From the sequence record MH383160: a stretch of 64,000 nucleotides of DNA, one strand, 5' to 3'. The DNA comes from Escherichia phage UB. This document shows positions 1 through 64,000 of the stretch, piece by piece. A program made the position numbers and the translations under genes. The notes under the pieces are model-generated. The model was not told where the DNA came from. It made no database searches and worked only from the letters and a program-made list of their open reading frames with translations. Within the stretch, counting starts at the first letter, position 1; the number at the start of each line of letters is the position of its first letter.

Positions 1-303
1 TAAATCATTGAACTCATGTGATGCAGTTTGAACTTTAATTTCTTTGAAGTTATTGGTTATACAACCGGAATAAATATTTCGGTGCAACTCTCTGTACAAC
101 GCAGCATAATCTATGAATTTTGCTTTAGGGTTAAAATCAAGAACACTTTCACCTTTATATGACAATCGGTGGAACGCCGAGAACATAGTCACTTCCCACG
201 GTTGCTTAATATCTAGCTCAGTAATATCAATATTATTGGACAGAAGAACCGTAAAAATCTCACCAATCTTTAATAGTAACTTAGTACGTGCTAGTACTGT
301 CAT
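1..303 (-). CDS. hypothetical protein (partial, C-terminus beyond window start)
   Basis: ATG at 303, open frame of 101 codons to window edge, continues minus-strand gene chain; absent from ORF track because no stop in window. Confidence 0.4.
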   Translation of the reverse strand, partial: MTVLARTKLLLKIGEIFTVLLSNNIDITELDIKQPWEVTMFSAFHRLSYKGESVLDFNPKAKFIDYAALYRELHRNIYSGCITNNFKEIKVQTASHEFNDL

Positions 304-314
304 AGGTTCAATCA

Positions 315-728
315 TTATACACCTTCATATTCATCAAGGAAATCTTCGATGATCATTTCAGCTTCATCCATATGCATCGCATCAACTTCAATAATACGAA
401 TTTTAGATGTATCCCAAATCATAAAGCTAGGAACATTGTCTGGCTCGTAATCATTTTTGTACTGAACAGCATCATAACCTTGAGCCGTGCAATTCTCAAT
501 AAGTGAACGCCACTCATCATCACTGCCTAAATCTTCACACAGAAGCACGTTATCAACATCAACTTCTAAGGTATGCAAGTATACTGTACATGCGTCAACA
601 ACGTTTAGTGGGCTTCTCAGCTTGCGTAAGGCAGCTTCCAAAGCACTGTGTTTACCTCCCATATGAAGTCCACCATACGGGATATAAAAGTTATCAATTT
701 TTACAGTACTCGCATGATACAGTTTCAT
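315..728 (-). CDS. hypothetical protein
   Basis: ORF track 137 aa; AGGAA 8 nt upstream of ATG; in minus-strand chain. Confidence 0.55.
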   Translation of the reverse strand: MKLYHASTVKIDNFYIPYGGLHMGGKHSALEAALRKLRSPLNVVDACTVYLHTLEVDVDNVLLCEDLGSDDEWRSLIENCTAQGYDAVQYKNDYEPDNVPSFMIWDTSKIRIIEVDAMHMDEAEMIIEDFLDEYEGV

Positions 729-737
729 ATTTCATTC

Positions 738-1322
738 CTATTTCAGTACTTTAGTCAATGCTTTCACAGCGGTTTCGAGTTGAGCATAGTCGTTAATTGT
801 AAGGTAATGAATACCATGTGCATTCATTTCAGCATCTATTTTACTATATAAATCAAACATGTCAAGGATATGATTGTATGCATATGAAGTATTTGAAACA
901 CACAATTCTTGGAACAAACGTTCTTCCAAGTCATTCACAACTTCACCATGAATGTCAAGTACTACACCATCTTTGTAAGTATAGTATTCTTCACTCCACT
1001 CTTCAGAAAGTCGGAACAGTAACGGATTCCCGCCGAACACTTCCATGTCATAGGAATTTATCTCACTAAGTAGTGTTTCACCTGGTTCTGGTGTGAAGTC
1101 GAAATATGCGAGTGTTGAACCATCATAGTCCTTGAGTGATATACCAGTATGATTTAAGCTTACTTCACCATAATTATTATTCTTGAACTTAATTTTGATA
1201 TTAATCTCAATGTATTTTATTGTCTCATCATCACTGAAATTGTAATCAATTTTATACTTTTCCCAAAGAAGTTTGATATCTTTGAAGTACTTTAATTTAC
1301 TTTCAATTTCTTTAAAGTCCAT
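738..1322 (-). CDS. FQ-motif family protein (hypothetical)
   Basis: ORF track 194 aa; motif ERLFQELCVS. Confidence 0.6.
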   Translation of the reverse strand: MDFKEIESKLKYFKDIKLLWEKYKIDYNFSDDETIKYIEINIKIKFKNNNYGEVSLNHTGISLKDYDGSTLAYFDFTPEPGETLLSEINSYDMEVFGGNPLLFRLSEEWSEEYYTYKDGVVLDIHGEVVNDLEERLFQELCVSNTSYAYNHILDMFDLYSKIDAEMNAHGIHYLTINDYAQLETAVKALTKVLK

Positions 1323-1914
1323 CTGGAACCACCATTTCTTGAATGTGCTTACATTTTATATTTCCCATATTAGTATGCAATATAAGGGTGTGATTACGCA
1401 ATGATTTTACTTTATAGCACTCATTGAGTACTGAAATAATTCCCCATAACTCTTCTACACTAATAGTGATAGGTTCACTTGTACTCAGTTGCATTAGTGC
1501 TGCTTCAACATCATCTTTGTTATTAATAGTGAACTGAATTCCTCTTTTGAGAATTTTAGTTTTTGGATTGTATTCAGCTAATACATCACCTTCTGGATAA
1601 CCCTCATGAAGTAATAATGTTGTTTCAAAATCACCGCAGTTGAAGTTAATTTCATCATAATCAGGTACACAAATGTTTCCTTCCCCGTACTCATTAGGTT
1701 CAGATTCTAGTGTTAAAATACGCTGAGTCTCATTGCTCAGGATGATAGAATCATTCCAGTACTGGGTAGTGAATGCTCTACGTTTCTTTTGAAAGCACAT
1801 ACTCGACATTGACCCATACTTCTTGTATATGGACTTCTTGAACTCAATAGCAGCAGGAGCCACCTTGATAACTTCACGAATTAAGTCAATAGCTTCTTGA
1901 TAACTTTTTCTCAT
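1312..1914 (-). CDS. hypothetical protein
   Basis: ORF track 200 aa; overlaps neighbours by a few nt in chain. Confidence 0.55.
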   Translation of the reverse strand: MRKSYQEAIDLIREVIKVAPAAIEFKKSIYKKYGSMSSMCFQKKRRAFTTQYWNDSIILSNETQRILTLESEPNEYGEGNICVPDYDEINFNCGDFETTLLLHEGYPEGDVLAEYNPKTKILKRGIQFTINNKDDVEAALMQLSTSEPITISVEELWGIISVLNECYKVKSLRNHTLILHTNMGNIKCKHIQEMVVPDGL

Positions 1915-2462
1915 TTATCGTATCCATATAAAATATGATCTAGTGTACTTTGGACTTCTTCATGAAAGAATGAAGGGTAAACTTGTATTAATTTATCTTT
2001 AAGTTCAAGGGAATGGCATAGTTCTAATGTTTTGTAACAATCCTCGTACTGTGCCAGTACATGCAATGTACTTAACTGAAAATGTTGTTCTTCGGAGTAC
2101 AATAAATCATAAACCATATTATCGGATAAAAGATTAGATTTGATTGAAGGATCAAGTACTGTCTGATGGTGACCAACCCAAAAGATAGCTTTGGAGTTAA
2201 TGTTATTACAACCCCATCCTTTCCCCATCTTTTGGTGAATAGCAAATACACAGGAATCATACAAATTAATGTTCAGACGTTCTTCGTCTGCATGGATAGT
2301 TACACCATCAATAGATAGTGTATATTTGAAATCCATAGCCCCCTCACTTCGTGCACGGGAACTAAAGACGAGATATCGATGAATTATGGTATTGATTTTA
2401 TCTGCCCATCCTTCAACACATTTGGATGCACATAATGTAAAAAGATCATGATTGTAGTTCAT
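1911..2462 (-). CDS. FQ-motif family protein (hypothetical)
   Basis: ORF track 183 aa; motif EEQHFQLSTLH; RBS AAGGAGA upstream. Confidence 0.65.
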   Translation of the reverse strand: MNYNHDLFTLCASKCVEGWADKINTIIHRYLVFSSRARSEGAMDFKYTLSIDGVTIHADEERLNINLYDSCVFAIHQKMGKGWGCNNINSKAIFWVGHHQTVLDPSIKSNLLSDNMVYDLLYSEEQHFQLSTLHVLAQYEDCYKTLELCHSLELKDKLIQVYPSFFHEEVQSTLDHILYGYDK

Positions 2463-2491
2463 AAAATTCTCCTTGAGAACAATGTATCATA

Positions 2492-2517
2492 CAAAAAAAC
2501 CAGAGTCAACCCCTGGT
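2492..2517 (-). terminator. intrinsic terminator
   Basis: minus-strand hairpin ACCAG-loop-CTGGT followed by U7 run, just after stop of 2524..3105. Confidence 0.45.
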
Positions 2518-2523
2518 ACAAAT

Positions 2524-3105
2524 TTAATCCATCATAAGTGGGATGATTGCCCATATCTTTTTCATAATCATATCTTCAGTAAAAACAAATGTTTTAGGAG
2601 CAGTATATGATATTGACACACCAAATGGAAGTTTGATTGCATCATCAATTATATTATGAATATCAAACCATGTTTTAACATAATCATATGGTGGAAGTTC
2701 ATGAATTGTACTTAACTGAAAGTAATGTTCTTCACCAAAATCATTATATTCAATTTCACAAATTTTAGTGAATTGTTGATTCCATTTAGATATAATACTA
2801 TTTTTATTATTGTACATAGTAGTTCTATGCATAAAACCATTTTTGCTAGTATGATTTGATATTATGTTTTCTTCAATGTCAGTATCTATTTTAAAATTCA
2901 TATCAAAGTTGTAGTACGGACTCGAAGATTCTTTGAATTTTAAATGTAAATTGCGATTGTTATTAATTTCAATTTCAATACAAAACACATCTGAATCAAA
3001 ACGATTAAACTTGTAATCGTTATCTTCCGGTAGATTCTGTATTTTTTTCATAATACTAAGCATAGGGTGTACTACACTTTTAATAAAATCATTTGTTATT
3101 TTCAT
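2524..3105 (-). CDS. FQ-motif family protein (hypothetical)
   Basis: ORF track 193 aa; motif EEHYFQLSTIH. Confidence 0.65.
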   Translation of the reverse strand: MKITNDFIKSVVHPMLSIMKKIQNLPEDNDYKFNRFDSDVFCIEIEINNNRNLHLKFKESSSPYYNFDMNFKIDTDIEENIISNHTSKNGFMHRTTMYNNKNSIISKWNQQFTKICEIEYNDFGEEHYFQLSTIHELPPYDYVKTWFDIHNIIDDAIKLPFGVSISYTAPKTFVFTEDMIMKKIWAIIPLMMD

Positions 3106-3598
3106 AGTATTCCTTTAGAACTTTATATGATTCAACAATACTATCTTGTGTATAATTTGAACTATATACAACAGCACTTGTTTTAGTTGACCATAGATAT
3201 GACATAAAGGTTATAACACTACTACATGGACTTAATGTATTGTTTTGAAATTCAATTTCTTCAATGTTATCAGTACTGGTATAGATGAATTGGAAAGTAT
3301 CTCGTTTCTGATTCGATACCGAAACTAAAGTGCAATCAGTATAAGGGTTGTATATAAATGTCTCATTACTAATTGAACTATCATTAGTATATGAAGGTTT
3401 GGGAATATAAATCAAACGCATGATATCACGTTCAAGACCTGACTTATTACTTTCCACCAAAGAAATCATATCTATAATTGTCATATGTTCAACACTGACA
3501 TGGAACTTTTTGTTTAGAATTACATCTTTTGGAGAATTTTTATATGAAGACAAAATCTCATACATCTCAACCAATTCGCGTGCATTTAATAAACTCAT
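3089..3598 (-). CDS. FQ-motif family protein, divergent (hypothetical)
   Basis: ORF track 169 aa; motif EEIEFQNNTLS. Confidence 0.55.
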   Translation of the reverse strand: MSLLNARELVEMYEILSSYKNSPKDVILNKKFHVSVEHMTIIDMISLVESNKSGLERDIMRLIYIPKPSYTNDSSISNETFIYNPYTDCTLVSVSNQKRDTFQFIYTSTDNIEEIEFQNNTLSPCSSVITFMSYLWSTKTSAVVYSSNYTQDSIVESYKVLKEYYENNK

Positions 3599-4023
3599 AT
3601 TTTGTCTCTTAATGAAAGAATATCCTTAGTATAAACTGAAACAGAAATATGATTATATTTCATCATTAATTTATACACATAAGAAGCTAGTACTAAATCG
3701 TAAATTAATTTAGTATTATATAGTACTTGGTATTGTAACGCAAGTGAATCAATATCATCTTTACTTTCAATATCCAGAAATGTACCAAAAATTGTAGTAC
3801 CGTAGAGATGAAAAGTGGAATTAATGCAATCAATGCATTCATTGTCCAACAGAGTAGATGATGATGCCCTCGGTGAATCCCAAATAGTCACTGCGTGTAT
3901 GCCCTCAACGAACAAATCTATCCATATTTTGTGTCGTTGTCTTTTTTTTGTTTTATAATTTTCTGGATTTGAAAGTGTAGTTTCAATTATATCCCATATG
4001 TACAAACAATCATCTCTTGTCAT
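3595..4023 (-). CDS. hypothetical protein
   Basis: ORF track 142 aa; 4-nt overlaps with neighbours. Confidence 0.55.
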   Translation of the reverse strand: MTRDDCLYIWDIIETTLSNPENYKTKKRQRHKIWIDLFVEGIHAVTIWDSPRASSSTLLDNECIDCINSTFHLYGTTIFGTFLDIESKDDIDSLALQYQVLYNTKLIYDLVLASYVYKLMMKYNHISVSVYTKDILSLRDKI

Positions 4024-4601
4024 TATAGCACCTTATCCATTGCTGCATTTAATGCTTTTAAACGATCTACATTCAAATTATTGAAGATGTATGTTCCTAA
4101 CATGTGGAAATCGAACTGGTACTTTTTGTATTCATGATAAATTAAACTACAAAAAATAACAGTACTAAGAACCTCTTCAGGTATAACAGTGCTCATCTGG
4201 AACAGTTCTTCTTCAACTGTACTTGATTCTGGATTGATAGATTTTAACACATACTCTTCATCACCGAATAGTACTTTAATATTATATAAAACACCAATAG
4301 TACTAATATGGAATGGGTGGTGTGAAAAACTTCCATCATCCTTAATTTGTATATCGGTTCTAATCTCACACTCTTGATTACTTTTATTTTTATTTTTTAC
4401 AATACAAATATTTCTAGCCCCAGAAATAGTAAGAATACCGTGATCGTAATATTCATTGGACCAACATTTAGATGAAATTGCTACATCACGGATGAGGTAT
4501 TGTTTTTCAATTTCTTTCGCACTACTAACAATTGATAACATTTTTGTACTGATATCATATAATAACTGATGGCGTTCTGTCATATAACTATAAGCGTTCA
4601 T
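4023..4601 (-). CDS. FQ-motif family protein (hypothetical)
   Basis: ORF track 192 aa; motif EEELFQMSTVI. Confidence 0.65.
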   Translation of the reverse strand: MNAYSYMTERHQLLYDISTKMLSIVSSAKEIEKQYLIRDVAISSKCWSNEYYDHGILTISGARNICIVKNKNKSNQECEIRTDIQIKDDGSFSHHPFHISTIGVLYNIKVLFGDEEYVLKSINPESSTVEEELFQMSTVIPEEVLSTVIFCSLIYHEYKKYQFDFHMLGTYIFNNLNVDRLKALNAAMDKVL

Positions 4602-5172
4602 ATTTTTCCTTAACCGATTCTATATTTTGAAGTAGTGTATTCAGAACATCAGTCTTGTAATTGATAAAATCATTGTACATAACTAGTTCACCACAATCAA
4701 GAACTTTTGCAGTATCGTAACAAAGCATTAAGTACTCGAATTCTTTGTAATTGTCCAACAATGATTTCTGGAAAATGAATGCATCTCGAATATCTTCACT
4801 TTGGTCTAATTCTGGTGGAACATCCAACCCAATAAAACCATCATCTTCACTGAAATCAGATTCTACAATTTTATTCATTTTTTCATGTAATGCATTCGCA
4901 AATACCATATTAGAAGAAATAGAACCAATACGTTCACGATTTCTGGATGTGCGAATGTACATAGTAATCGTATCCCATGAACTTTTAATTTTTTTAGAAA
5001 ATTCATAAGTTTTATATACATCCAACTGAACTGATCCAAAACGATGTTTGGATTTGTTTTCAATTTTCAGTCGATAATCATCAAATTCAACAATTTCTGT
5101 AATGTCATGAATCTCTGAAAGTTCTGCAATGTCATGCATGAGTCTCAAAATTTTAGTTCTGATATGGTTCAT
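4588..5172 (-). CDS. FQ-motif family protein (hypothetical)
   Basis: ORF track 194 aa; motif DAFIFQKSLLD. Confidence 0.6.
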   Translation of the reverse strand: MNHIRTKILRLMHDIAELSEIHDITEIVEFDDYRLKIENKSKHRFGSVQLDVYKTYEFSKKIKSSWDTITMYIRTSRNRERIGSISSNMVFANALHEKMNKIVESDFSEDDGFIGLDVPPELDQSEDIRDAFIFQKSLLDNYKEFEYLMLCYDTAKVLDCGELVMYNDFINYKTDVLNTLLQNIESVKEKYERL

Positions 5173-5735
5173 TGTGCATCCTCGAATTTAACAGGTACAT
5201 GTTCATTAATGAAATTCTTAAGAGCCTGTACTAAATCCTCTAATTCTTTTGTACTGTATTTTAAAATAGTTTTAAAGTGAATCAAATCTTTTCTTTCCAT
5301 GATCTTTGGAATTTTATATGCTAACTCTAAACAGCGTACAGTACTGGCATCATACAAAAGGTTTGCGTTGAACATTAGCACATTGTATTCATCAGATGAA
5401 ATTTTATAATTATATGTATCAATCACTTCATGTGTGTATAAATTCTTATACACAATTTTATTCTCACTGAAGTTTGAGCAAACACACAGATAATCGTTGT
5501 AAAATGAAGAACGATAATCTTGTTTACGTTGTACATCTGCTATGATTTGTAATACTGTATATTTTTCTTCAGAATCCAACTCAATGTTAGCATAACTGCT
5601 CGCAGTTTCAGATACAAGGATATTGATGTTATATTTCTCATTAACTTTAATGTACTGGCGTGAACCAGTATCAGGAATGAACTTAAAACAATGCTTCAGA
5701 AGTAAGGTAACTTCTTTAATTAATTCAGTACTCAT
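5169..5735 (-). CDS. FQ-motif family protein, divergent (hypothetical)
   Basis: ORF track 188 aa; RBS AGGAG 5 nt upstream; degenerate motif DEYNVLMFNANLLYD. Confidence 0.55.
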   Translation of the reverse strand: MSTELIKEVTLLLKHCFKFIPDTGSRQYIKVNEKYNINILVSETASSYANIELDSEEKYTVLQIIADVQRKQDYRSSFYNDYLCVCSNFSENKIVYKNLYTHEVIDTYNYKISSDEYNVLMFNANLLYDASTVRCLELAYKIPKIMERKDLIHFKTILKYSTKELEDLVQALKNFINEHVPVKFEDAQ

Positions 5736-5762
5736 ATCTTCTCCTGTCCTCTATTAAAAGCG

Positions 5763-5791
5763 ATTATAACACATCTAAATGCTACTGTAAA
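5763..5791 (-). promoter_or_regulatory. sigma70-like promoter
   Basis: minus strand TTTACA-N17-TATAAT with TG extension, between terminator and RBS of 5169..5735. Confidence 0.5.
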
Positions 5792-5799
5792 GACATAAA

Positions 5800-5822
5800 C
5801 ACAAAAAGACCCATAAGGGTCT
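5800..5822 (-). terminator. intrinsic terminator
   Basis: hairpin AGACCC-ATAA-GGGTCT directly after stop of 5823..6389, U-rich tail on minus strand (T-run also on plus strand). Confidence 0.5.
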
Positions 5823-6389
5823 TTATTTTGGTAAAACACTGTCAATGTACGCTAGAGCTTCATCTCCGAGGTACGTTCCATCTATTGTTATGTAATAGTT
5901 CATGGGAATATCACACCCAACCTTCTCATAAATTTTCATACATGATATCACATCTTCATCACAAATGGTACTCAATTGAAAAAGTACTTCATCAGTTAAA
6001 GGTACGATATCATGTTTAGATATAGGATTGGTATTTTCATTTAAAACAATATCAAACAAGTTGGGAGTATTCTTTGACGAAATGTAACGATGCTTACTAC
6101 GAATTACCATTCTCGATAGTGAAATACTGGAACTCCATCTTGGATCAACATCTTCATATGATAACGATATTAACATCTCGTGAAAATCTTGGAATTTCAT
6201 TGATGCATAATATGTTTTTTCCTCACCGTACATTCCAAATGATTTGAATTCAATGTCACCTATATTGTGTGTATCACTGGCACTATTCACGAAATTTAAC
6301 AGACTATTGATTAGTCTGATTAGAATATCATCTTTATCCATTCTTAAATAACTCCAAGTGCATGTCGTATAAATCTCTGAAGTCTTCAT
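5823..6389 (-). CDS. FQ-motif family protein (hypothetical)
   Basis: ORF track 188 aa; motif DEVLFQLSTIC; start may instead be internal ATG at 6341. Confidence 0.6.
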   Translation of the reverse strand: MKTSEIYTTCTWSYLRMDKDDILIRLINSLLNFVNSASDTHNIGDIEFKSFGMYGEEKTYYASMKFQDFHEMLISLSYEDVDPRWSSSISLSRMVIRSKHRYISSKNTPNLFDIVLNENTNPISKHDIVPLTDEVLFQLSTICDEDVISCMKIYEKVGCDIPMNYYITIDGTYLGDEALAYIDSVLPK

Positions 6390-6897
6390 AGAAATCTTTT
6401 TCTTCCAGAATATCCTTTAAACTAGGAAACTCTTCCATAATTTCTTCTATATCCGATTCTATGAAAAACCCTGATGGATTATCGTAGTTTTGTAACAGAT
6501 AACTGAAAGTAATAATGTAAAGAAGTTCATTAGGATCGTGAATTAAACTTAGCTGGAACATAGCTGATTCTAAATCGGATTCAGTACTAAGATCAACCCA
6601 ACGTGAATTTCTATAATCAATTCGTACTTGACTTGTATTTGGATTCCATGTGAAGCAATGTGTACCAATATGACCTATACAACCAACCCTTGTACTGTCT
6701 CCGGTATCAACACTGATATCAACAAATAGTTCAACACTGATATCGGATGATGTTACACGACCTTTTTTCAGAAATAAATCATTATCCTTACGAAATTGTT
6801 TGGATGAAAGAGTGTCAATGATGCACATCAATGTTTTTGCAAATGCAACACAATGACGAAATTCAAGCCTATGAAATTGGTAATCATTGATATTCAT
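6334..6897 (-). CDS. FQ-motif family protein (hypothetical)
   Basis: ORF track 187 aa; motif ESAMFQLSLIHD. Confidence 0.65.
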   Translation of the reverse strand: MNINDYQFHRLEFRHCVAFAKTLMCIIDTLSSKQFRKDNDLFLKKGRVTSSDISVELFVDISVDTGDSTRVGCIGHIGTHCFTWNPNTSQVRIDYRNSRWVDLSTESDLESAMFQLSLIHDPNELLYIITFSYLLQNYDNPSGFFIESDIEEIMEEFPSLKDILEEKDFYEDFRDLYDMHLELFKNG

Positions 6898-7436
6898 AAT
6901 TCAACCCCCAATATTTTATCAGCAATTGATATAACCTTATCATTGAATACATTACCAATCTCAATCCTTATATACATAGCAGGTGGAATCTTTCCTTGTA
7001 GTGAATAATATGTTTGTATACCTAAGTACTCATTATCTGATAATGAAAATTTGATTCTCTCCATATCAATGTCTGTTACTGGTAAATCAATCATTTCATA
7101 ATGGTAGTCAACGTTTTCAGTGTATATTTTATCGAAGTAATTTGAATAATCACTACTAATATAGATGCTATCATCACGAATAATCACTTTATAATCAGAA
7201 GGTTCAAATTTATCTTTAGAAGAAAAGAATGCATCATCTATCTTCTCTTCTCTTATACCGAATAACATTTTACCATCATATTTTACATCAAGAATACTAC
7301 CTAGTATATTAATGGTACAATGCTCATCAATATTATGACGTAAAGAACGAGTCTTGTATTTTGGGTTAATGAAAATTTTCATTAATTTTATACAAATGTC
7401 AGTAATGCATTTTACATTCTCATTTTCTATGTACAT
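6894..7436 (-). CDS. hypothetical protein
   Basis: ORF track 180 aa; 4-nt overlap coupling. Confidence 0.55.
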   Translation of the reverse strand: MYIENENVKCITDICIKLMKIFINPKYKTRSLRHNIDEHCTINILGSILDVKYDGKMLFGIREEKIDDAFFSSKDKFEPSDYKVIIRDDSIYISSDYSNYFDKIYTENVDYHYEMIDLPVTDIDMERIKFSLSDNEYLGIQTYYSLQGKIPPAMYIRIEIGNVFNDKVISIADKILGVEL

Positions 7437-55240: not shown

Positions 55241-55248
55241 ATTATGTG

Positions 55249-55428: not shown

Positions 55429-55429
55429 A

Positions 55430-56273: not shown

Positions 56274-56283
56274 TTGGTTTCCT

Positions 56284-56463: not shown

Positions 56464-56471
56464 AGTATTCC

Positions 56472-56654: not shown

Positions 56655-56662
56655 TTTATTCC

Positions 56663-56848: not shown

Positions 56849-57057
56849 TATAATGTAATTAGCCTTACTATATTAAAGTACTCGGTTCCTGGTGTACCTT
56901 GTAGTATATTACGCACGACATTTTTTTGGTGCTGGATGATTGCTGAAGGTGCGGTTCTTTTTAGTTTTTTTAAAGTACTGAATTCTTGTTTAAGTATGAA
57001 CTGTACATCTTTAGGGAGAATATCTATGTAGTACTGATGAATGTTTGTAGTTTTCAT
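56848..57057 (-). CDS. MHKEYY family small protein, divergent (hypothetical)
   Basis: ORF track 69 aa; MKTTNIHQYYIDILP... Confidence 0.5.
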   Translation of the reverse strand: MKTTNIHQYYIDILPKDVQFILKQEFSTLKKLKRTAPSAIIQHQKNVVRNILQGTPGTEYFNIVRLITL

Positions 57058-57067
57058 ATAGCACCTT

Positions 57068-57262
57068 TTAGAACTTAAAGATGAGGTTCAGGATAGAGCG
57101 GTACTTAGTTTCAGGGAACTGATGTTCTATTGCATAACGTGTCGCCATCCTGAAATCGTAATTGTAATATAGATTATCCTTTCTCATAGGTGGTGCTAAA
57201 GAGAATGATAGCTGGTCTTGCTTGTGTAGTTTACTACCATAGAAATCTTTATGATTATTCAT
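57068..57262 (-). CDS. MHKEYY family small protein (hypothetical)
   Basis: ORF track 64 aa; MNNHKDFY...LNLIFKF. Confidence 0.55.
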   Translation of the reverse strand: MNNHKDFYGSKLHKQDQLSFSLAPPMRKDNLYYNYDFRMATRYAIEHQFPETKYRSILNLIFKF

Positions 57263-57464
57263 AGAAGTAGATTAGTCCTATTAAACCTGAGTACATAATA
57301 TTTTTGTTATTGCATTCGATTGCTTCTAGAGTACTACGTATACAATTATTAAAGCAATCTCTACCGAATTGAGTATTGGTACTTACAGGTGATACACTCC
57401 TTAGAAACAATTGTTCTTCGTTGCTAAGGTATTTGGTGTAGAATTCTTTATGTTCAGTATTCAT
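57255..57464 (-). CDS. MHKEYY family small protein (hypothetical)
   Basis: ORF track 69 aa; MNTEHKEFYTKYLS... Confidence 0.55.
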   Translation of the reverse strand: MNTEHKEFYTKYLSNEEQLFLRSVSPVSTNTQFGRDCFNNCIRSTLEAIECNNKNIMYSGLIGLIYFYE

Positions 57465-57465
57465 A

Positions 57466-57669
57466 TTAGTACTCGATTAATAGGGTAAGGATGTAATAGT
57501 ATTGCATACATTCTACCCCTTGTAAAGCATTTCTTATGTTATTATTCCTGTACGAGTTCAGGAGTTTAGGGCTACGTTTGAGGTGTTTGAAATTAGTTTG
57601 TGTATGCAGTAGGCTTTCACGTAGACCTTTTGTTGGTAGTGCATCGATGTAGTACTGTTCGATATTCAT
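57466..57669 (-). CDS. MHKEYY family small protein, divergent (hypothetical)
   Basis: ORF track 67 aa; MNIEQYYIDALP...YYYILTLLIEY. Confidence 0.5.
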   Translation of the reverse strand: MNIEQYYIDALPTKGLRESLLHTQTNFKHLKRSPKLLNSYRNNNIRNALQGVECMQYYYILTLLIEY

Positions 57670-57893
57670 ATAGATAGCAGTACTAAGATTTTTGATAATT
57701 GTTTATTGCTATCCCCGCAGATGTTGCTGTGTAAAATACTCACAATGAGGGTATCAATTGCATTGTTCATCATAAGGGTGCATCCTGGACTATTATAATT
57801 TTTTAGCTCAATTAGCCACGAACTATCCGAGAGAAATTCCCCGTACTCTAGTTCATTTAGAGTATTGAGGTAGTACTTAAGAGTATTTGTCAT
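57666..57893 (-). CDS. MHKEYY family small protein, divergent (hypothetical)
   Basis: ORF track 75 aa; first gene of array; AAGGAG RBS. Confidence 0.5.
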   Translation of the reverse strand: MTNTLKYYLNTLNELEYGEFLSDSSWLIELKNYNSPGCTLMMNNAIDTLIVSILHSNICGDSNKQLSKILVLLSI

Positions 57894-57964: not shown

Positions 57965-57979
57965 TAAATATGATATAAT
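57965..57979 (+). promoter_or_regulatory. -10-only promoter-like element (candidate late-type promoter)
   Basis: TAAATATGATATAAT followed by GAATAAGGAGG RBS; no -35 match. Confidence 0.35.
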
Positions 57980-57995
57980 GAATAAGGAGGGAAAT

Positions 57996-59132
57996 ATGTT
58001 ACCTTTTGCAAGAATGATGAATTATGGGAACGTAGCACCAGATAAACTAAAAATACGTGATATTGTTGCAGGTGCTAATTCATTATTACTAATAACAGAG
58101 GATAATGAATTATGGGTGCGTGGTAATAATGCGTATGGCAAATTAGGTATAGGAACTGATACTATAGTGAATGTAACCGAGTGGACTAAAGTTAGAGATG
58201 ATGTTAAGTTTGCTTGTGCTAGTAATTTAGTATGCGTTGTATTAACTGTAGATAATAAAATTTTATACTGTGGTGATGAATGGTTTGAATCTGGTGGTTC
58301 GACAAGTTCTAAAGTTGTTACATGGAAAGATGTTACGACACAATTTAGTGCAGTGAATCTAAGCACAGTTCGTGAAATGAAAATAACTTATTATTGTGTA
58401 GGATTACTTACAAATGATAATAGATTATATGCTAAAGGATATGATAATAACCAATCATTTGGTGGTTCAACAAGCAAAGTTAATGCTGTATTAGTTGCGT
58501 CAAATGTTTCAAAATTCTACACTTCTCTATCTGGTACTATATATTCTAGTACTACTGGTGGTTACTATCGCTGTGGTATAAGCAATACTGGAGCATTGGG
58601 TACTAGCACAAATTTAACTTCTTATAATTTGTACTCTGCTCCCGAATTTGCATCCGAATGTGCAGTTGGTATGTCAACATTAAACTCTGGTATATTATAT
58701 TATGATACTAATGGTATCACTAGATATGTTATAGCAGGTCAAAATAGAAATTATCAACTAGGTAATTCTTCTTCAAATACCACAAACGTATATTCGTATA
58801 CAGAATTAACCGGATATAGAGGCAGGTTTAGGGATTTGTGGAGTGATATGAATAACTCTGTTCTTTCTTTTGCTATAAGCACAGATGGCAATACTTTATA
58901 TTATGCTGGTACTAACAATACACTATCTTCTGGTGATCCTGGTGTTGAATATTCATCTGCATTCAAAGAAGTACCACACGGGTTTAATGATATAACAAAG
59001 GCGGCATCGTTAGCATATCTATCTATAGTGCAAGATTCAACGGGATGGTATTATTCTGGAAATGCAACTACGTTATATGGTTTGCCATCGAGTGGTGAAT
59101 TTATACCATTACCATTACCAACATTAATTTAA
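57996..59132 (+). CDS. RCC1-like repeat (beta-propeller) protein, MLPFARM paralog family
   Basis: ORF trimmed to ATG 57996 after AAGGAGG; repeats GNNAYGKLGIG, GYDNNQSFGG, GQNRNYQLGN. Confidence 0.6.
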   Translation: MLPFARMMNYGNVAPDKLKIRDIVAGANSLLLITEDNELWVRGNNAYGKLGIGTDTIVNVTEWTKVRDDVKFACASNLVCVVLTVDNKILYCGDEWFESGGSTSSKVVTWKDVTTQFSAVNLSTVREMKITYYCVGLLTNDNRLYAKGYDNNQSFGGSTSKVNAVLVASNVSKFYTSLSGTIYSSTTGGYYRCGISNTGALGTSTNLTSYNLYSAPEFASECAVGMSTLNSGILYYDTNGITRYVIAGQNRNYQLGNSSSNTTNVYSYTELTGYRGRFRDLWSDMNNSVLSFAISTDGNTLYYAGTNNTLSSGDPGVEYSSAFKEVPHGFNDITKAASLAYLSIVQDSTGWYYSGNATTLYGLPSSGEFIPLPLPTLI

Positions 59133-59138
59133 ATATAG

Positions 59139-59169
59139 GCCAGTACTTGATACTGGCTTTCTTTTTTTT
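59139..59169 (+). terminator. intrinsic terminator
   Basis: GCCAGTA-CTTGA-TACTGGC then T-rich run. Confidence 0.6.
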
Positions 59170-59172
59170 GTA

Positions 59173-59188
59173 TTAAATATAGTATAAT
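59173..59188 (+). promoter_or_regulatory. -10-only promoter-like element
   Basis: conserved TTAAATATAGTATAAT immediately before GAATAAGGAGG. Confidence 0.35.
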
Positions 59189-59204
59189 GAATAAGGAGGG
59201 ATTT

Positions 59205-60314
59205 ATGTTACCTTTTGGAAGAATGGTTAAGTACGGAAATATTGTACCTGGTCCTAAAAATATAATTAAAGTTGGTGCTTCTACACAAGGTCAATTCTTA
59301 TTGACTGATTCACATGATTTATATTACATAGGTAGAAATCAAGGTGGTGAATCTGGAAATGGTAATACCAACACGGTATCTTCATGGATATTAGTAAGTG
59401 CAGATGTTTCTAATTTTTTCGTGGGTGATCGTACACTTGTTATTATTAAAAATGATAATACTATATGGACATCAGGTCAAACGTACTGGTTCTCATCTTC
59501 TACAACTACTTCTTACAGTACTGTATTAGTTGAAAGGACTAGTTGGTTTACCACGGCTATACCAGTAAGTGAGATTGCTAATATTGTATGTACAAATGGT
59601 TTAATATTTGTACTTAGCACTAATTCAGTACTCTATGGTGCAGGAGATAATGGATATCGTGGTTCTTTGGGTATTGGTTCATCATCAATTTATACATTAA
59701 CTCAATGTGCTACGAACGTTCGTAAAGTAATGACAAATGCGAATGATAGTATGTATCTTACATTAGATAATAAGCTATATAGTTCTGGATGGAATAGTAG
59801 TGGGCAGCATGGTACGGGGAACCAAACACAAATTAATACTTGGGGATTACGTAGTTCTGGTGTAATCGATGCAGCAATTGGTGGTAATGCATTAAATTAC
59901 TATAATGGTACATCATATTTCGTATGTGGTCAAACTCCAAACTTTCTTAGTTCAGGTACGACTACATTCCGTGCAGTTCCTGTAAGTACTTTGCCTAATA
60001 GTTCTCCGTTGTTTATGACGAATTCACCTGCATTAAATACTGCTACACAAATGGTAATTACTAGTACATATCAGAAGGGTGTTGGGGCGAACCGTGGTTT
60101 GGGATTAAACAATTCTCAAACTGGTGCTATATATAGTGCTACCAATTTACAATTACCCGTTGAAGTTAGTGAGATTAGGGATGTTCTTTTTAGTGATGGT
60201 TTGACATCGATATTAACCAAAAATGGAGATGTGTATAGTACTGGATCGTATTACGCCATTCCAGGTGCAATCGAGGATGTTGCAGTCTTTACTAAAATTG
60301 ATTTACCAAAATAA
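59205..60314 (+). CDS. RCC1-like repeat protein, MLPFGRM paralog family
   Basis: ORF trimmed to ATG 59205; repeats GDNGYRGSLGIG, GWNSSGQHGTG. Confidence 0.6.
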   Translation: MLPFGRMVKYGNIVPGPKNIIKVGASTQGQFLLTDSHDLYYIGRNQGGESGNGNTNTVSSWILVSADVSNFFVGDRTLVIIKNDNTIWTSGQTYWFSSSTTTSYSTVLVERTSWFTTAIPVSEIANIVCTNGLIFVLSTNSVLYGAGDNGYRGSLGIGSSSIYTLTQCATNVRKVMTNANDSMYLTLDNKLYSSGWNSSGQHGTGNQTQINTWGLRSSGVIDAAIGGNALNYYNGTSYFVCGQTPNFLSSGTTTFRAVPVSTLPNSSPLFMTNSPALNTATQMVITSTYQKGVGANRGLGLNNSQTGAIYSATNLQLPVEVSEIRDVLFSDGLTSILTKNGDVYSTGSYYAIPGAIEDVAVFTKIDLPK

Positions 60315-60320
60315 CATAAT

Positions 60321-60350
60321 GCCAGTACTTGATACTGGCTTTTATTTTTT
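60321..60350 (+). terminator. intrinsic terminator
   Basis: GCCAGTA-CTTGA-TACTGGC then TTTTATTTTTT. Confidence 0.6.
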
Positions 60351-60352
60351 GA

Positions 60353-60368
60353 TTAAATATAGTATAAT
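60353..60368 (+). promoter_or_regulatory. -10-only promoter-like element
   Basis: TTAAATATAGTATAAT before RBS. Confidence 0.35.
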
Positions 60369-60384
60369 GAATAAAGGAGGAATT

Positions 60385-61572
60385 ATGTTACCTTTTGCAA
60401 GAATGGTTAAGTACGGGAATAAAGTCATTCCATATGTTCCCAATTTTACTAAATTAGTCACCCCAGCAGTTGGTTATTCATTTACATGCACAATGCTGCT
60501 GGATGTAAATGGATCAGTGTGGGCTATGGGTCTTCAGAATGGTGGAATTTTTGGGTTAGGGAATACTACACAGGTTACTGAATGGACAAAAATATATAGC
60601 AATGTTAAAGATTTTTGGTGCAGTACAGGGAATGGGTTTTGTCTAATACGAACAAATGATGATAGATTCTTTTATAGTGGTTTAGATAAATGGCTAGGTA
60701 ATAATACAACAAATACTGTAACAACATTCACTGAATGTACGAGTTATTTTACACAATTTGGTATTTCAAAAATCAAAGAGATATATGTAGGTCTTGATTA
60801 TGCTTTGATTTTAGGTACTGATAATAGTTTATATTTGTTAGGTGATAATAAAAATTCAAAGTTTGGTTTAAACACTGCATCATATTTTAATAAATTTACA
60901 TTTTTAGTCGATAATGTTAAAAAATTCTGTTCATCCATCACACCCTCTAACTGGATTATTAAACTAGATAATACAATATGGCGTACTGGGACAACATCTC
61001 ATGGAACGTTGGGAAATGGAGTTCAAAACACATATATATTTCCTTGGGTTCAATATAAGGGCACACCTGTTACCGAAGCTATAGACGTTTTTTGTAGTGC
61101 GAGTTATATTGGTATTATAACTAAAGGTACACCAGAATCATGTCCTATGTATACAATGGGCTATCAAGCTGATGGTCAGTTGGGTAATAATACTACAGCA
61201 GGGGGTTATAAATTAACGCCAACGTTATCGAAAACCGTTCCAGATGATAGTGAATTCATTCGAATTGAAAACATCTCATCCCGTGGCCTGGTATATTATA
61301 GCTCTGGTAAAATTTATAGTACTGGTTATAATAACAATGGTCAATTGGCAAATAACAGTACAATTAATTCTGGTTCATTTGTTGAAGCAATTTTACCTGA
61401 TGGTGTTAATTTTAAGAAAAGTGAATCACTTGTAGCTGGGAACGATGCAACGTTGTATATGTACATTAATAATAAATTATACTACGCGGGGAAATCCCCT
61501 GATAATATTTCAGCAAGTAGTTCATCTGTCATGAAAGAGTTCCCACTTCCAACAATCAATGCCAGTACTTGA
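60385..61572 (+). CDS. RCC1-like repeat protein, MLPFARM paralog family
   Basis: ORF-track ORF 60223..61572 trimmed to ATG 60385 after AAAGGAGG; repeats GLQNGGIFGLGN, GYQADGQLGNN, GYNNNGQLANN. Confidence 0.6.
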   Translation: MLPFARMVKYGNKVIPYVPNFTKLVTPAVGYSFTCTMLLDVNGSVWAMGLQNGGIFGLGNTTQVTEWTKIYSNVKDFWCSTGNGFCLIRTNDDRFFYSGLDKWLGNNTTNTVTTFTECTSYFTQFGISKIKEIYVGLDYALILGTDNSLYLLGDNKNSKFGLNTASYFNKFTFLVDNVKKFCSSITPSNWIIKLDNTIWRTGTTSHGTLGNGVQNTYIFPWVQYKGTPVTEAIDVFCSASYIGIITKGTPESCPMYTMGYQADGQLGNNTTAGGYKLTPTLSKTVPDDSEFIRIENISSRGLVYYSSGKIYSTGYNNNGQLANNSTINSGSFVEAILPDGVNFKKSESLVAGNDATLYMYINNKLYYAGKSPDNISASSSSVMKEFPLPTINAST

Positions 61573-61590
61573 TACTGGTATTCTTATTTG
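61561..61590 (+). terminator. intrinsic terminator
   Basis: CCAGTA-CTTGA-TACTGG then T-rich run; overlaps stop codon. Confidence 0.55.
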
Positions 61591-61592
61591 TA

Positions 61593-61608
61593 TTAAATAT
61601 AGTATAAT
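61593..61608 (+). promoter_or_regulatory. -10-only promoter-like element
   Basis: TTAAATATAGTATAAT before RBS. Confidence 0.35.
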
Positions 61609-61624
61609 GAATAAAGGAGGAATT

Positions 61625-62812
61625 ATGTTACCTTTTGCAAGAATGATGAATTATGGGAATATTGTGCCTGTACCACTACAAATTAAGAAAATAATACCAA
61701 CTGATACTGATGTTGTTGTACTTTATACTGATGGTCAACTATACGCACGAGGAAATAATGCTTTTGGGAAGTTTGGAAGAGGCAACAACACTGCATTAAG
61801 AACATGGACATTAATTAGAGAAAACGTTAACGATTTCTGGATCACACAAGGAACTTTGTTAGTTCAAGATAATGACTTAAATTATTACTATTGTGGATAT
61901 GGTGATCATATTGGTTTACCAAGTAGTACTACTACGTTTTTAAGTTATAACCAATATATTGAAAATTTGTTCACGCAAAGTTCAAGTACTTCAATTAAAC
62001 AGATGTATGCAGGTACTACGTGGTTTACTTTCTTAATGGATAATAATACAATATGGAGTACTGGTTGGAGTGGGGGTAAACAATTCGCTGATGGTACGGG
62101 TAGTACTCAACAAATAACAGATGGATCATTTGTAAAAGCTGTCACGCCTGATGTTGATATTGCACAAATACAGTCAACAAATAACTGTGTAATGTTTTTT
62201 GATACACAAAATAATTTATATATTGGTGGTGGTACGTCAGGTATAAGTACTAGTACTACATGGACTTCATATAATGAATATACTTTATATAAACCAAGTA
62301 CAACATACACAAAAACGTTACAATACACTGGATGCTCAAGTGGTGCAGTCAGTGCTTTGGTTGAGAATCCAAGTACTGGTGCACGTCAGTTTCTAGTTGG
62401 TGGTTTAGCGAATAATGGTGCATGGGGCAACAATACCACAACCAGTTCAGCACTTGCTGTATTAGGGAGCAATAGTACGACATTACCACCCGGTACTTTG
62501 TATTCAATTCATACTGGATACCCAACACAATCTAGTATACTAGTTACGAGTACTGGTGTATATGCAACTGGTTTAAATGCGAGTAGTTATGCTGGCTCTT
62601 TGGGTGTAGGTTCTAATGTTACTATTGGTAAATTTACTGCATGTCCAATGCCTACACAAATAACATATTCTATGTATGATAAAATAAAAATATATAGAGG
62701 TTCATATCGTACATTTCTAACTGATATGAAAAATATATATTCAACCGGAACTTATGATGATGGTGGTCCTAGTACAACTAGATATGTACTAGATACACCC
62801 CGTCAATTATAA
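61625..62812 (+). CDS. RCC1-like repeat protein, MLPFARM paralog family
   Basis: ORF-track ORF trimmed to ATG 61625; repeat GNNAFGKFGRGN. Confidence 0.6.
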   Translation: MLPFARMMNYGNIVPVPLQIKKIIPTDTDVVVLYTDGQLYARGNNAFGKFGRGNNTALRTWTLIRENVNDFWITQGTLLVQDNDLNYYYCGYGDHIGLPSSTTTFLSYNQYIENLFTQSSSTSIKQMYAGTTWFTFLMDNNTIWSTGWSGGKQFADGTGSTQQITDGSFVKAVTPDVDIAQIQSTNNCVMFFDTQNNLYIGGGTSGISTSTTWTSYNEYTLYKPSTTYTKTLQYTGCSSGAVSALVENPSTGARQFLVGGLANNGAWGNNTTTSSALAVLGSNSTTLPPGTLYSIHTGYPTQSSILVTSTGVYATGLNASSYAGSLGVGSNVTIGKFTACPMPTQITYSMYDKIKIYRGSYRTFLTDMKNIYSTGTYDDGGPSTTRYVLDTPRQL

Positions 62813-62818
62813 TATAAT

Positions 62819-62849
62819 AGCCAGTACTCAGTACTGGCTTTCTTATTTG
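62819..62849 (+). terminator. intrinsic terminator
   Basis: 9-bp stem AGCCAGTAC-TCA-GTACTGGCT then T-rich run. Confidence 0.6.
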
Positions 62850-62851
62850 TA

Positions 62852-62867
62852 TTAAATATAGTATAAT
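62852..62867 (+). promoter_or_regulatory. -10-only promoter-like element
   Basis: TTAAATATAGTATAAT before RBS. Confidence 0.35.
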
Positions 62868-62883
62868 GAATAAAGGAGGAAGT

Positions 62884-63621
62884 ATGTTACCTTTTGGAAG
62901 AATGGTAAAGTACGGGAATAAAATTGAATATAAGCCAGATGGTGAACAATTAATCACGACAATAGGAACAACACAATTTACAGTTCCTGCTGGCGTTACC
63001 GAAATATCAGTATGTGTTATTTCGCCGGGTGGTCAACGTGGTGCTGGTGGCGGCTTATCGTGGCGTAATAATATTCCGGTTACTAGTGGTGAGTACTTAA
63101 GTGTTTCTCTTACACATCCCAACACTACTACACCAGTTGAAAACGGTTTATATCGTGGAACTGAAAAACTATGTGTTAGCTTCACTGGTGAATATAGGGT
63201 TGGTGGACTAGGTGGGAAAGCTGCTAACGCTATTAATGATGGTGGTGGTAATGGGGGCAACGCTGGTGTAAGTGGTGGTGCAGTCATTGGTGGTGGTGCT
63301 GGTGGCTACACTGGTAAAGGTGGTAACGGAGATGCAATCACTGGTGAAAATGGTGCTGGCGGCGGCGGTGGTGGTGGTGCATTCTATAATACCTCGTTCA
63401 TTGGTACGGGTGGTGGTACTGGTATCATTGTTCAAGGTGCTAATGGTATTGGCGGTAGATACGATGGTTCATATAATGGTGGTGCTGGTAGTGGTGGTGC
63501 TGGTAAGATGTATGGTGGTGGTGGTAGTATATGGGATAATTTTTCTTATACGGCTGCTGGTGGTGGTGCTGTGCGAATAATATGGGGACGTGGGAGATAT
63601 TATCCTAACAATTCAGTCTAA
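62884..63621 (+). CDS. MLPFGRM-family protein with glycine-rich C-terminal region
   Basis: ORF trimmed to ATG 62884; shared N-terminus MLPFGRMVKYGN; C-terminal 150 aa about half Gly (GGGAGGYTGKGGNGD..., GGGGGGGAF...). Confidence 0.55.
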   Translation: MLPFGRMVKYGNKIEYKPDGEQLITTIGTTQFTVPAGVTEISVCVISPGGQRGAGGGLSWRNNIPVTSGEYLSVSLTHPNTTTPVENGLYRGTEKLCVSFTGEYRVGGLGGKAANAINDGGGNGGNAGVSGGAVIGGGAGGYTGKGGNGDAITGENGAGGGGGGGAFYNTSFIGTGGGTGIIVQGANGIGGRYDGSYNGGAGSGGAGKMYGGGGSIWDNFSYTAAGGGAVRIIWGRGRYYPNNSV

Positions 63622-63628
63622 AATATAG

Positions 63629-63658
63629 GCCAGTACTTGATACTGGCTTTCTTATTTG
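63629..63658 (+). terminator. intrinsic terminator
   Basis: GCCAGTA-CTTGA-TACTGGC then T-rich run. Confidence 0.6.
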
Positions 63659-63660
63659 TA

Positions 63661-63676
63661 TTAAATATAGTATAAT
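63661..63676 (+). promoter_or_regulatory. -10-only promoter-like element
   Basis: TTAAATATAGTATAAT before RBS. Confidence 0.35.
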
Positions 63677-63693
63677 GAATAAGGAGGGGAATT

Positions 63694-64000
63694 ATGTTAC
63701 CTTTTGCAAGAATGGTTAAGTACGGGAATATAGCACCAGTTCCAGTAGTTCCTACAATAAAAGATTTTAAGATTGGCTTTTCACATGAAGTGTTATTGGA
63801 CAGTGCAGGTGATGCATGGGGTATTGGATACAATACAGATGGGCAGTTAGGCTTTTTGGATGCAAATACCAATTCACTAGGTGTGTGGTCTAAGATATAT
63901 ACTGATGTTCGATTAATTGGAGTTACTGCTAGATATACAGTGGTAGTTACTAATAATAATAGAATCCTTTACGCAGGAAATAACTTAATTTCTAGTACTA
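63694..64000 (+). CDS. RCC1-like repeat protein, MLPFARM paralog family (partial, continues beyond window end)
   Basis: ATG 63694 after AAGGAGGG; MLPFARMVKYGN...GYNTDGQLGF; no stop in window so absent from ORF track. Confidence 0.5.
   Translation, partial: MLPFARMVKYGNIAPVPVVPTIKDFKIGFSHEVLLDSAGDAWGIGYNTDGQLGFLDANTNSLGVWSKIYTDVRLIGVTARYTVVVTNNNRILYAGNNLISST

Follow-up and report, generated by a model that had tools for sequence, protein, structure and literature searches.

What does a jumbo phage keep in 64 kb of small, nearly nameless genes? The question is raised by a stretch of 64,000 nucleotides from Escherichia phage UB (sequence record MH383160), referred to below, at its full length, as the window. 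An initial annotation, made from the letters of the sequence, had seen no hallmark phage gene in it and described an accessory region of ORFans dominated by four expanded families. We find that the window is, by homology with sequenced relatives, the joined-ends region of an Asteriusvirus genome, with a direct terminal repeat (DTR) of about 20 kb in its centre, three lineage-specific families of paralogs (Fam1, Fam2 and Fam3) beside it and an array of RCC1-like genes at one edge. The reading that we favour, with moderate confidence, is that the DTR forms an early module which, together with the flanking families of putative effectors, serves host takeover.

DNA identity places the replicon in the genus Asteriusvirus

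When the window was compared by megablast with 50,697 phage records, it showed high identity to Asteriusvirus jumbo coliphages, whose genomes measure 348-386 kb. Positions 1-20 kb are 97-98% identical to CRJP21, PBECO4 and BF17 (97.8% with PBECO4 over 95-20,000), positions 20-44 kb are about 95% identical to G17, phAPEC6 and PBECO4 (about 95% with PBECO4 over 20-40.5 kb), and positions 44-64 kb match WPEC3/5, G17 and phAPEC6 in a patchy way, at 90-94%. The ICTV requires more than 70% nucleotide identity to PBECO4 genome-wide for the genus, and 95% for a species; over the 64-kb window that was compared, the values lie above the genus threshold. On this DNA identity the replicon is an Asteriusvirus jumbo coliphage of the PBECO4/121Q type, in the 350-kb class, and the earlier guess of a jumbo-type phage proved right (95-98% DNA identity to Asteriusvirus genomes).

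The relatives PBECO4, 121Q, phAPEC6, G17, CRJP21 and fEgEco12 resemble the window in gene order, in the end bases of the terminal repeat and in the possession of the four families. Most genes of the window have orthologs more than 90% identical, but the alleles are mosaic in a scattered fashion, single genes being 31-79% identical, or absent, in one relative. Near-identical sequence is nothing new: it is already public, the tandem arrays and terminal repeats of these phages have been described in the literature, and the region is ordinary jumbo-phage dark matter, annotated in nearly all places in the relatives as 'hypothetical protein' (in the PBECO4 RefSeq stretch, 117 of 117 features; 83% of phAPEC6 genes are without known function). 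What the present work adds is the recognition of the central 19.7 kb as terminal repeat, a dense array of sigma-70 promoters and leader hairpins within it, the placement of the families around it, the selection acting on the ORFans, a Fam1 fold without solved relative and a signature of the palindrome AGTACT.

The central 19.7 kb correspond to the direct terminal repeat

Position 1 of fEgEco12 aligns to position 53,219 of the window, the end of the fEgEco12 DTR (20,993) aligns to 33,510, and the CRJP21 record starts at the base equivalent to 53,219. The termini of fEgEco12 were confirmed by PhageTerm and restriction digests (PMC13070987), and the direct terminal repeats of Asteriusvirus are 20-21 kb long, 20,668 bp in Sharanji. 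Because the fEgEco12 termini and the CRJP21 start map there, we identify 33,510-53,219 as one collapsed copy of the DTR, with boundaries transferred by homology. The ORFan character noted in the initial annotation was borne out, but the term 'accessory region' has to be corrected: by the same comparison, this is not a random accessory island but a DTR with conserved multigene arrays on both sides.

The repeat differs from its surroundings in composition and layout. Its G+C content is 0.36-0.41, versus 0.29-0.35 in the flanks, and its genes are spaced by intergenic regions of 60-250 bp that carry promoters, whereas the flanking genes overlap. The DTR stands between Fam2 and Fam1 on one flank and Fam3 with the RCC1-like array on the other. 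Read in the orientation of fEgEco12, the genome opens with an ORF-poor 1.7 kb and continues rightward into the repeat genes, then Fam2, then Fam1; its far end runs through the RCC1-like genes, on the opposite strand, and Fam3 into the right repeat.

A dense array of predicted sigma-70 promoters lies in the repeat

The coding strand of the DTR was scored for the consensus TTGACA-N16-18-TATAAT. Thirteen perfect sites were found, all with spacers of N16/17, together with 7 sites having 11/12 and 18 having 10/12 matches; removal of overlaps leaves 36 non-redundant sites. From base composition, about 0.03 perfect sites would be expected in the DTR by chance, and the remaining 44 kb of the window contain one. 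A-rich, UP-like tracts precede the DTR promoters, and 26 of the 54 DTR ORFs have a promoter 10-150 nucleotides upstream; the repeat shows what is looked for in an early module, a cluster of predicted strong host-sigma promoters ahead of small genes.

About 17 of these promoters (minus strand, 35,200-51,120) are followed by a G+C-rich hairpin of 7-9 bp, which begins some 7 nucleotides past an ACAT that is conserved downstream of the -10 box. The stems vary in a compensatory manner (GGGGAGAA/TTCTCCCC, GAGGGGAA/TTCCCCTC, GCGGGAA/TTCCCGC), and the 45-nucleotide segments past the -10 box fold with a mean of -8.4 kcal/mol, versus -5.8 kcal/mol for random DTR 45-mers (p=0.003). Since they lack T-runs, these hairpins are probably mRNA 5' stem-loops rather than terminators. 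Two further elements accompany subsets of promoters (Table 1). Each copy of the CACTAGCCCAYAGGGTGCAT element stands 25-35 nucleotides downstream of its own promoter, the minus-strand copies being also directly upstream of a second promoter; these elements may be small RNAs, tandem-promoter leaders or protein-binding sites. Four promoters have their -35 box inside a hairpin, AAAGGGATTGACTCCGGTCAGTCCCTTT, which looks like a terminator overlapping a promoter.

Three families of paralogs are confined to the phage lineage

Clustering by BLASTP and iterated hidden Markov models (HMM) placed 91 of the 174 ORFs of the window in four families, so that the four expanded families reported from the letters alone are real. 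Fam1 comprises 36 members of 103-221 amino acids (aa), spanning 2.5-27.5 kb, with one more at 55.6 kb. They are acidic (net charge -4.3 per 100 aa) and have little in common besides the motif [ST][ED]E[ED][LY]FQx[ST][LT][VI], in which F is invariant and Q nearly so. Profile comparison of ORFs of about 190 aa suggested two marginal further members, at 19,818-20,441 (E=2.7e-4) and 1,911-2,462 (E=1e-3). An AlphaFold model computed from the paralog alignment (pLDDT 85, pTM 0.80) predicts a beta-sheet domain between a helix at the N-terminus and a helical part at the C-terminus; the latter bears the motif, which itself forms a short helix (residues 103-109), the most confident part of the model (pLDDT 97-98). 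A fold search with this model found nothing in the PDB. In a library of viral structures it matched uncharacterised proteins of 121Q and SP27. Further matches, with TM-scores of about 0.5-0.7, were to several proteins in both Klebsiella phage RaK2 and Cronobacter phage GAP32 and to one protein each in Serratia phage BF and Yersinia phage fHe-Yen9-04. Judged from the model, the Fam1 fold seems to belong to a multigene family that is old and common to the entire Rak2-like lineage.

The Fam1 motif recalls, in one member (13,997-14,449, residues 102-111, SEEYYFQ/NS), the tobacco etch virus (TEV)/3C protease site ENLYFQ/S, which is probably a coincidence, given that the motif sits in the best-predicted part of the model; no 3C-like protease was found in the window.

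Fam2 copies outside the main array are located at 12,034-12,421 and 24,490-26,045. The AlphaFold model is a four-helix bundle of high confidence (pLDDT 96.8), for which fold search returned generic helical bundles alone and no functional lead. A triplication within the array at 29,452-30,121 (period of 226 bp, 3 copies, 74% match by Tandem Repeats Finder) is recent. We also noted that a 269-aa ORF (25,236-26,045, minus strand) carries a Fam2 domain; no full-length ortholog of it was found in PBECO4 or fEgEco12 (31-36% identity over 25% of the length). As for Fam3, no transmembrane segment was predicted, and a profile search returned Asteriusvirus-type contigs alone. The Fam1 member that interrupts the Fam3 array (55,608-56,273, minus strand, 221 aa) has the variant motif EELFMYS.

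Profile searches of 5.8 billion proteins retrieved Asteriusvirus-type proteins alone. An exhaustive HMM scan of 1.84 billion representatives gave 153 proteins, and the ten sampled across the ranking came from Asteriusvirus-type or metagenomic contigs. By these searches, the families are confined to this phage lineage. Tandem duplication has been proposed as a route to the growth of jumbo genomes, and an array of more than 30 genes in 121Q was cited in its favour (Hua et al. 2017); this array is probably Fam2.

The ORFans are under purifying selection and family sizes are stable

Pooled dN/dS values (ratios of nonsynonymous to synonymous substitution rates, Nei-Gojobori), computed against the orthologs of PBECO4, fEgEco12 and WPEC3, were 0.16-0.18 for the DTR genes, 0.17-0.26 for Fam1, 0.33-0.36 for Fam2, 0.37 for Fam3 and 0.24 for the RCC1-like genes. 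From these codon comparisons, we conclude that the ORFans are real genes under purifying selection. Copy numbers hardly differ: 36 Fam1 members versus 35 in PBECO4, 31 Fam2 copies versus 32 in PBECO4, and 19 Fam3 copies in both the window and WPEC3. No more variation in copy number than this was seen for the three families in PBECO4 and WPEC3. The arrays do consist of diverged tandem paralogs, including recent duplicates, as tandem duplication predicts. The families are old and maintained, neither neutral filler nor an accordion that currently expands and contracts.

A putative host-takeover region and its alternatives

In the scheme that we propose, the DTR would be an immediate-early module read by the host sigma-70 RNA polymerase, each of its some 36 promoters driving one to three small genes and many transcripts starting with a stable 5' stem-loop. 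Its products, among them a TraR/DksA-type regulator, a Ser/Thr-kinase-like, a GNAT and a ParE-like protein, would serve host takeover, and the TraR/DksA-type protein would bind, as members of its family do, the secondary channel of RNA polymerase. The Fam2 and Fam1 arrays, operon-like, would follow the left repeat in the same direction. Fam1, Fam2 and Fam3 proteins would be non-virion early or delayed-early effectors, diversified binders or inhibitors of host factors, which arose by old tandem duplication and are kept by purifying selection.

Several points weigh against this scheme. The boundaries of the DTR come by homology from fEgEco12; one paper gives UE-S1 a DTR of 8.3 kb, a value disputed by the fEgEco12 authors (PMC13070987). 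The DTR promoters and hairpins are consensus or structure predictions. A functional hint exists for just 4-5 of the some 54 DTR products, the kinase match being below the Pfam cutoff, and neither PADLOC (run on 27.5-64 kb) nor fold searches linked Fam1, Fam2 or Fam3 to a host target. Lastly, the stable copy numbers among relatives argue against an ongoing arms-race accordion.

The nearest alternative refines the same scheme: the families would be mainly an anti-defence arsenal, in which every paralog would counter its own target among host immunity proteins or their alleles, in the manner of anti-CRISPR or anti-restriction proteins. In its favour, these are small, soluble proteins, those of Fam1 being acidic, the paralogs are diversified around a small conserved core, and the families adjoin the early region. 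Evolution is faster in Fam2 and Fam3 than in the DTR genes (dN/dS 0.33-0.37 versus 0.16), and alleles are mosaic between strains, one gene (g30103) being 44% identical in PBECO4 and 99% in fEgEco12. However, no similarity to a known anti-defence or defence protein was found, PADLOC giving one weak kinase-type match and the fold searches being uninformative; copy number is stable across relatives, and many Fam1 orthologs show 100% identity even between isolates of different hosts and continents, unlike typical arms-race genes. We regard an arsenal of this kind as possible, but lean against it. The idea that the arrays are largely neutral filler, tandem duplications piled up after capsid enlargement as in the ratchet of Hua et al. 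(2017), appears very unlikely to us. It agrees with the tandem-duplication route and the 121Q array described by these authors, and with the fact that no function could be assigned to the arrays, but dN/dS is 0.16-0.37 in every group, the ORFs are intact with confident AlphaFold 2 models, copy number and order are kept among relatives, and several paralogs with the Fam1 fold exist in RaK2, GAP32 and other distant Rak2-like phages.

Could the three families instead be packaged internal or ejected virion proteins, for instance components of the inner body? The capsids of 121Q and phAPEC6 do contain an inner body of unknown composition, and the adjoining RCC1-like proteins are virion-associated: mass spectrometry of phAPEC6 virions detected 62 proteins, including the RCC1-like gp003, 005, 006, 007, 009, 010, 549 and 551 (PMC7247149, Table 1). 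None of the 62, though, falls between gp348 and gp548 (PMC7247149), the interval that holds the counterparts of Fam1, Fam2 and Fam3, and the genes follow sigma-70 promoters, not motifs of the T4-late type. By analogy with phAPEC6, the DTR genes and the three families thus appear non-structural, and a virion role is very unlikely. Least credible of all is the view that many small ORFs are spurious and that the region consists largely of non-coding or regulatory DNA. Many are very short (40-90 aa) and without homologs outside the lineage, and the segment 51.6-53.2 kb is truly ORF-poor and repeat-rich; against this stand a coding density of about 90%, nearly all on one strand, purifying selection at the codon level, paralog motifs kept at the protein level and confident structure predictions.

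The host-takeover scheme has precedents in genome architecture. Phage SPO1 reportedly carries a host-takeover module in its 13-kb terminal redundancy. As in the window, some two dozen or more small, mostly ORFan genes lie in a long terminal repeat, singly or grouped behind strong early promoters for the host polymerase; but host and sigma factor are others, the repeat here is 20 kb long with about 54 ORFs, the flanking paralog arrays are absent in SPO1, and early timing in the present phage is a prediction. T5 has its pre-early genes in a 10-kb long terminal repeat. Its genome, too, is non-permuted and has long direct terminal repeats, which in T5 hold small genes for host shutoff under very strong sigma-70 promoters; no sign of its two-step DNA transfer was seen here. 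The authors of UE-S1 called the Asteriusvirus ends 'long-ended T5 type'. No homologs of SPO1 gp37-60 or of T5 A1, A2 and dmp were found among the Pfam, NCBIfam and function-annotated PHROG matches, and the resemblance to these modules is, by this comparison, architectural only. Poxviruses and African swine fever virus have terminal multigene families of unknown or host-interaction function, whose copy number varies strongly between strains; there too, paralog families adjoin genome ends or terminal repeats, but in the present phage and its relatives copy number is nearly fixed.

Closer at hand, in the wider Rak2-like lineage, phage CBB (vB_PcaM_CBB) has RpoD-type promoters with UP elements clustered in a region of short hypothetical ORFs that reaches into its 22-kb terminal repeat, for which a role in early expression and host takeover was proposed (PMC5259590). 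CBB differs in having 18 such promoters genome-wide and 22 paralogous ORFs (PMC5259590), whereas in the present phage the repeat by itself has about 36 promoters, and the four families comprise 91 ORFs. Large families of diverged, non-structural tandem paralogs are shared with phage G and 121Q (Hua et al. 2017). The map makes genes that were mere hypothetical entries testable, as it shows the ORFans organised around a 20-kb repeat with three lineage-specific families beside it, and it shows experimenters where host-takeover and anti-defence functions may be sought in phages proposed for therapy against pathogenic E. coli.

Table 1. Positions of the features described in the window
Feature	Position	Strand	Remarks
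Fam1 region	738..27487	-	36 paralogs amid ~25 unrelated ORFans; tightly packed, stop and start codons often overlap
Fam2 main tandem array	27477..33412	-	26 of 31 copies, ~72 aa, LGTNYQE motif, four-helix model
DTR, one collapsed copy, ~20 kb (19.7 kb)	33510..53219	-	54 small ORFs; termini by homology with fEgEco12
Element CACTAGCCCAYAGGGTGCAT(A/G)AGTGTATCT, eight copies	34,936; 37,189; 40,461; 42,818; 44,482; 50,414 (-); 48,368; 52,118 (+)	-, +	
-35 box (TTGACT) inside 8-12-bp hairpin AAAGGGATTGACTCCGGTCAGTCCCTTT, four promoters	34,970-34,989; 37,224-37,251; 40,491-40,518; 44,521-40	-	
Leader hairpin GGGGAGAAnnnTTCTCCCC and compensatory variants	e.g. 43,919-43,937; 36,756-36,774; 41,184-41,203	-	5' leaders
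Kinase-like ORF	37263..37904	-	213 aa; RDxxKxxN and DYG; Pfam Pkinase E=0.0027, 17.6 bits vs cutoff 31.7
ParE-like toxin-domain ORF	38451..38705	-	84 aa; PF24732, E=6.4e-11, 42.5 bits vs 24.4
DUF7247 ORF	41,252-41,575	-	Pfam
GNAT acetyltransferase ORF	41871..42227	-	118 aa; PF00583, E=4e-9, 37.2 bits vs 20.7
TraR/DksA C4 zinc-finger ORF	42291..42548	-	85 aa; PF01258, 36.8 bits vs 24.9; NCBIfam PRK11019 E=1.4e-22
DUF7249 ORF	50826..51065	-	79 aa; 77-87% nucleotide identity with rV5-like and phAPEC8-like coliphages
ORF-poor outer DTR end (physical left end in fEgEco12)	51600..53219	.	Promoters on both strands; AGTACT 9.9 per kb
8-nucleotide degenerate tandem array, TAGCCGTC x12	52,315-52,413		Inside the ORF-poor DTR end
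Fam3 array	53493..57893	-	19 copies of ~60 aa, HKEFY...Y..IL.LI; interrupted by one Fam1 member
RCC1-like beta-propeller array	57978..63621	+	5 paralogs; divergently transcribed; cut by the window end

Gene content and named proteins of the repeat

The window holds 174 ORFs of at least 40 aa, 165 of which lie on the minus strand, up to 57.9 kb, so that the earlier count of about 165 was right. Pfam matched none of the 65 ORFs of 1-27.5 kb at E<0.005. Among the 109 ORFs of 27.5-64 kb, it recognised RCC1 families in 4-5 ORFs and GNAT, zf-dksA_traR, ParE_like, DUF7247 and DUF7249 in one ORF each, besides a kinase match below threshold; the kinase-, GNAT-, TraR- and RCC1-like resemblances suspected at first sight were in this way each located, at the level claimed. 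In all, about 11 of the 174 ORFs (~6%) received a Pfam name, and most were assigned to no named family, in line with the initial annotation. NCBIfam named two proteins, TraR/DksA and, weakly, GNAT. PHROGs placed nearly every ORF in a family, always of 'unknown function' except for RCC1, and PADLOC, run on 27.5-64 kb, gave a single weak match of kinase type (PD-T4-6, 3e-4). No tRNA was found in the window and no Rfam family at gathering thresholds, the DTR yielding just one chance miRNA match at E<=1. No polymerase, terminase or capsid gene was found by homology in the 64 kb. The statement that hallmark genes are lacking holds to this extent, and has to be qualified for the RCC1-like paralogs, given their association with the phAPEC6 virion (PMC7247149).

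The kinase-like ORF has 52 weak sequence matches in the PDB, every one of them to a protein kinase, the alignment spanning the catalytic loop and the DFG motif, just past which the protein stops. The PD-T4-6 match, not localised to an ORF, sits in the same half of the window. The TraR/DksA ORF carries the four zinc-ligand cysteines (CLDC...CMYCITC). No PDB sequence match was found for the ParE-like ORF, and its neighbours at 38,767-39,171 and 38,179-38,454 had no Pfam match, no antitoxin being recognised there. The upstream neighbour (38,767-39,171) has a paralog at 50,477-50,848; after the ParE-like gene come two paralogous ORFs of about 95 aa, each with an internal-looking promoter, and then the kinase-like gene.

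Three labels given to small repeat genes in fEgEco12 were not retained. 'Protein spackle' (counterpart of 47,582-47,881) is without Pfam or PHROGs support, 'pro-lysogenic factor' is the right-repeat copy of the DksA-like zinc finger of the left repeat, that is of the TraR/DksA ORF, and 'tail fiber protein' was set aside.

Small DTR genes at 50,826-51,165, 43,695-43,901 and 36,276-36,467 share 77-89% nucleotide identity with unrelated coliphages of 135-155 kb (rV5-like, phAPEC8-like, Justusliebigvirus), which points to recent horizontal exchange of early genes with those phages. At the outer end of the repeat, the perfect promoter at 52,854 lacks an ORF behind it; the first 1,688 bp of fEgEco12 are likewise free of annotated genes. 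These outermost 1.6 kb may be a packaging, replication or non-coding RNA region. We also observed that at the boundary of DTR and Fam3 (~53,000-54,000) GC skew flips from about -0.1 to +0.2, the coding strand remaining the same, and that AT skew is strongly negative in Fam2 and Fam3 (-0.16 to -0.23).

AGTACT is over-represented and GC-rich palindromes are avoided

The palindrome AGTACT occurs 262 times in the window, versus about 22 expected (12-fold), most densely in 33,510-57,950, and the longer CAGTACTG occurs 50 times, versus less than one expected. Copies are found in intergenic DNA and, within genes, in every reading frame (73/45/73), with a density of 10.8 per kb in non-coding versus 3.3 per kb in coding DNA. 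In 16 of the 36 DTR promoters AGTACT occupies a fixed position in the spacer (-19/-20), and in 6-7 it is fused to the -35 box. Compared with fEgEco12, 89% of the copies are conserved, versus 73% for all hexamers. Together with the overlapping CAGTAC/GTACTG, AGTACT is also among the top over-represented hexamers of a PBECO4 core region (6.5-fold) and of a structural region of Klebsiella phage RaK2 (6.9-fold). AGTACT is the core of the E. coli SlmA-binding site, GTGAGTACTCAC, but we rejected this reading, the preferred flanks being here C-AGTACT-G and not G-AGTACT-C. A search of the literature on AGTACT or CAGTACTG in phages found nothing relevant.

Palindromes rich in G and C show the opposite trend. 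Of the 64 palindromic hexamers, 25 are absent from the window; when hexamers with four G/C are considered, it lacks 17 of 24 palindromes versus 2% of non-palindromes. This is a signature of restriction-site avoidance, which we noted for PBECO4 (200-250 kb) as well as for the window. The enrichment of AGTACT and the avoidance of GC-rich palindromes may be clues to the regulation or protection of DNA in these phages. A bolder proposal would be that Fam1, a fold without solved relative present as at least 36 paralogs per genome and in Rak2-like jumbo phages only, forms with Fam2 and Fam3 a new class of early effectors around the DTR, and that across the lineage AGTACT serves a phage factor as a site for binding or marking. 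Taken as a whole it is doubtful; if it were true, the AGTACT factor might switch off early transcription, or tell phage from host DNA.

The RCC1-like array is the most variable part of the region

The genes at the plus-strand edge of the window match RCC1 families above the family thresholds in 4 ORFs (PF25390, E=3.8e-28; PF13540, 6e-8; PF00415, 1e-9), and phrog_4219, 'regulator of chromosome condensation', matches 5; this name comes from the eukaryotic RCC1 protein. Among themselves the paralogs are 25-34% identical. They are 23-35% identical, over the longer alignments, to the syntenic gp549-551 of phAPEC6 (compared over phAPEC6 348,957-352,535), gp549 being the counterpart of 57,978-59,132, while the flanking DNA is more than 90% identical. 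This is also the sole family with a visible difference in copy number: phAPEC6 has eleven such genes (Wagemans et al.) and WPEC3 at least 14. By these comparisons the array is hypervariable, the most variable part of the region, and its variability is possibly linked to host range.

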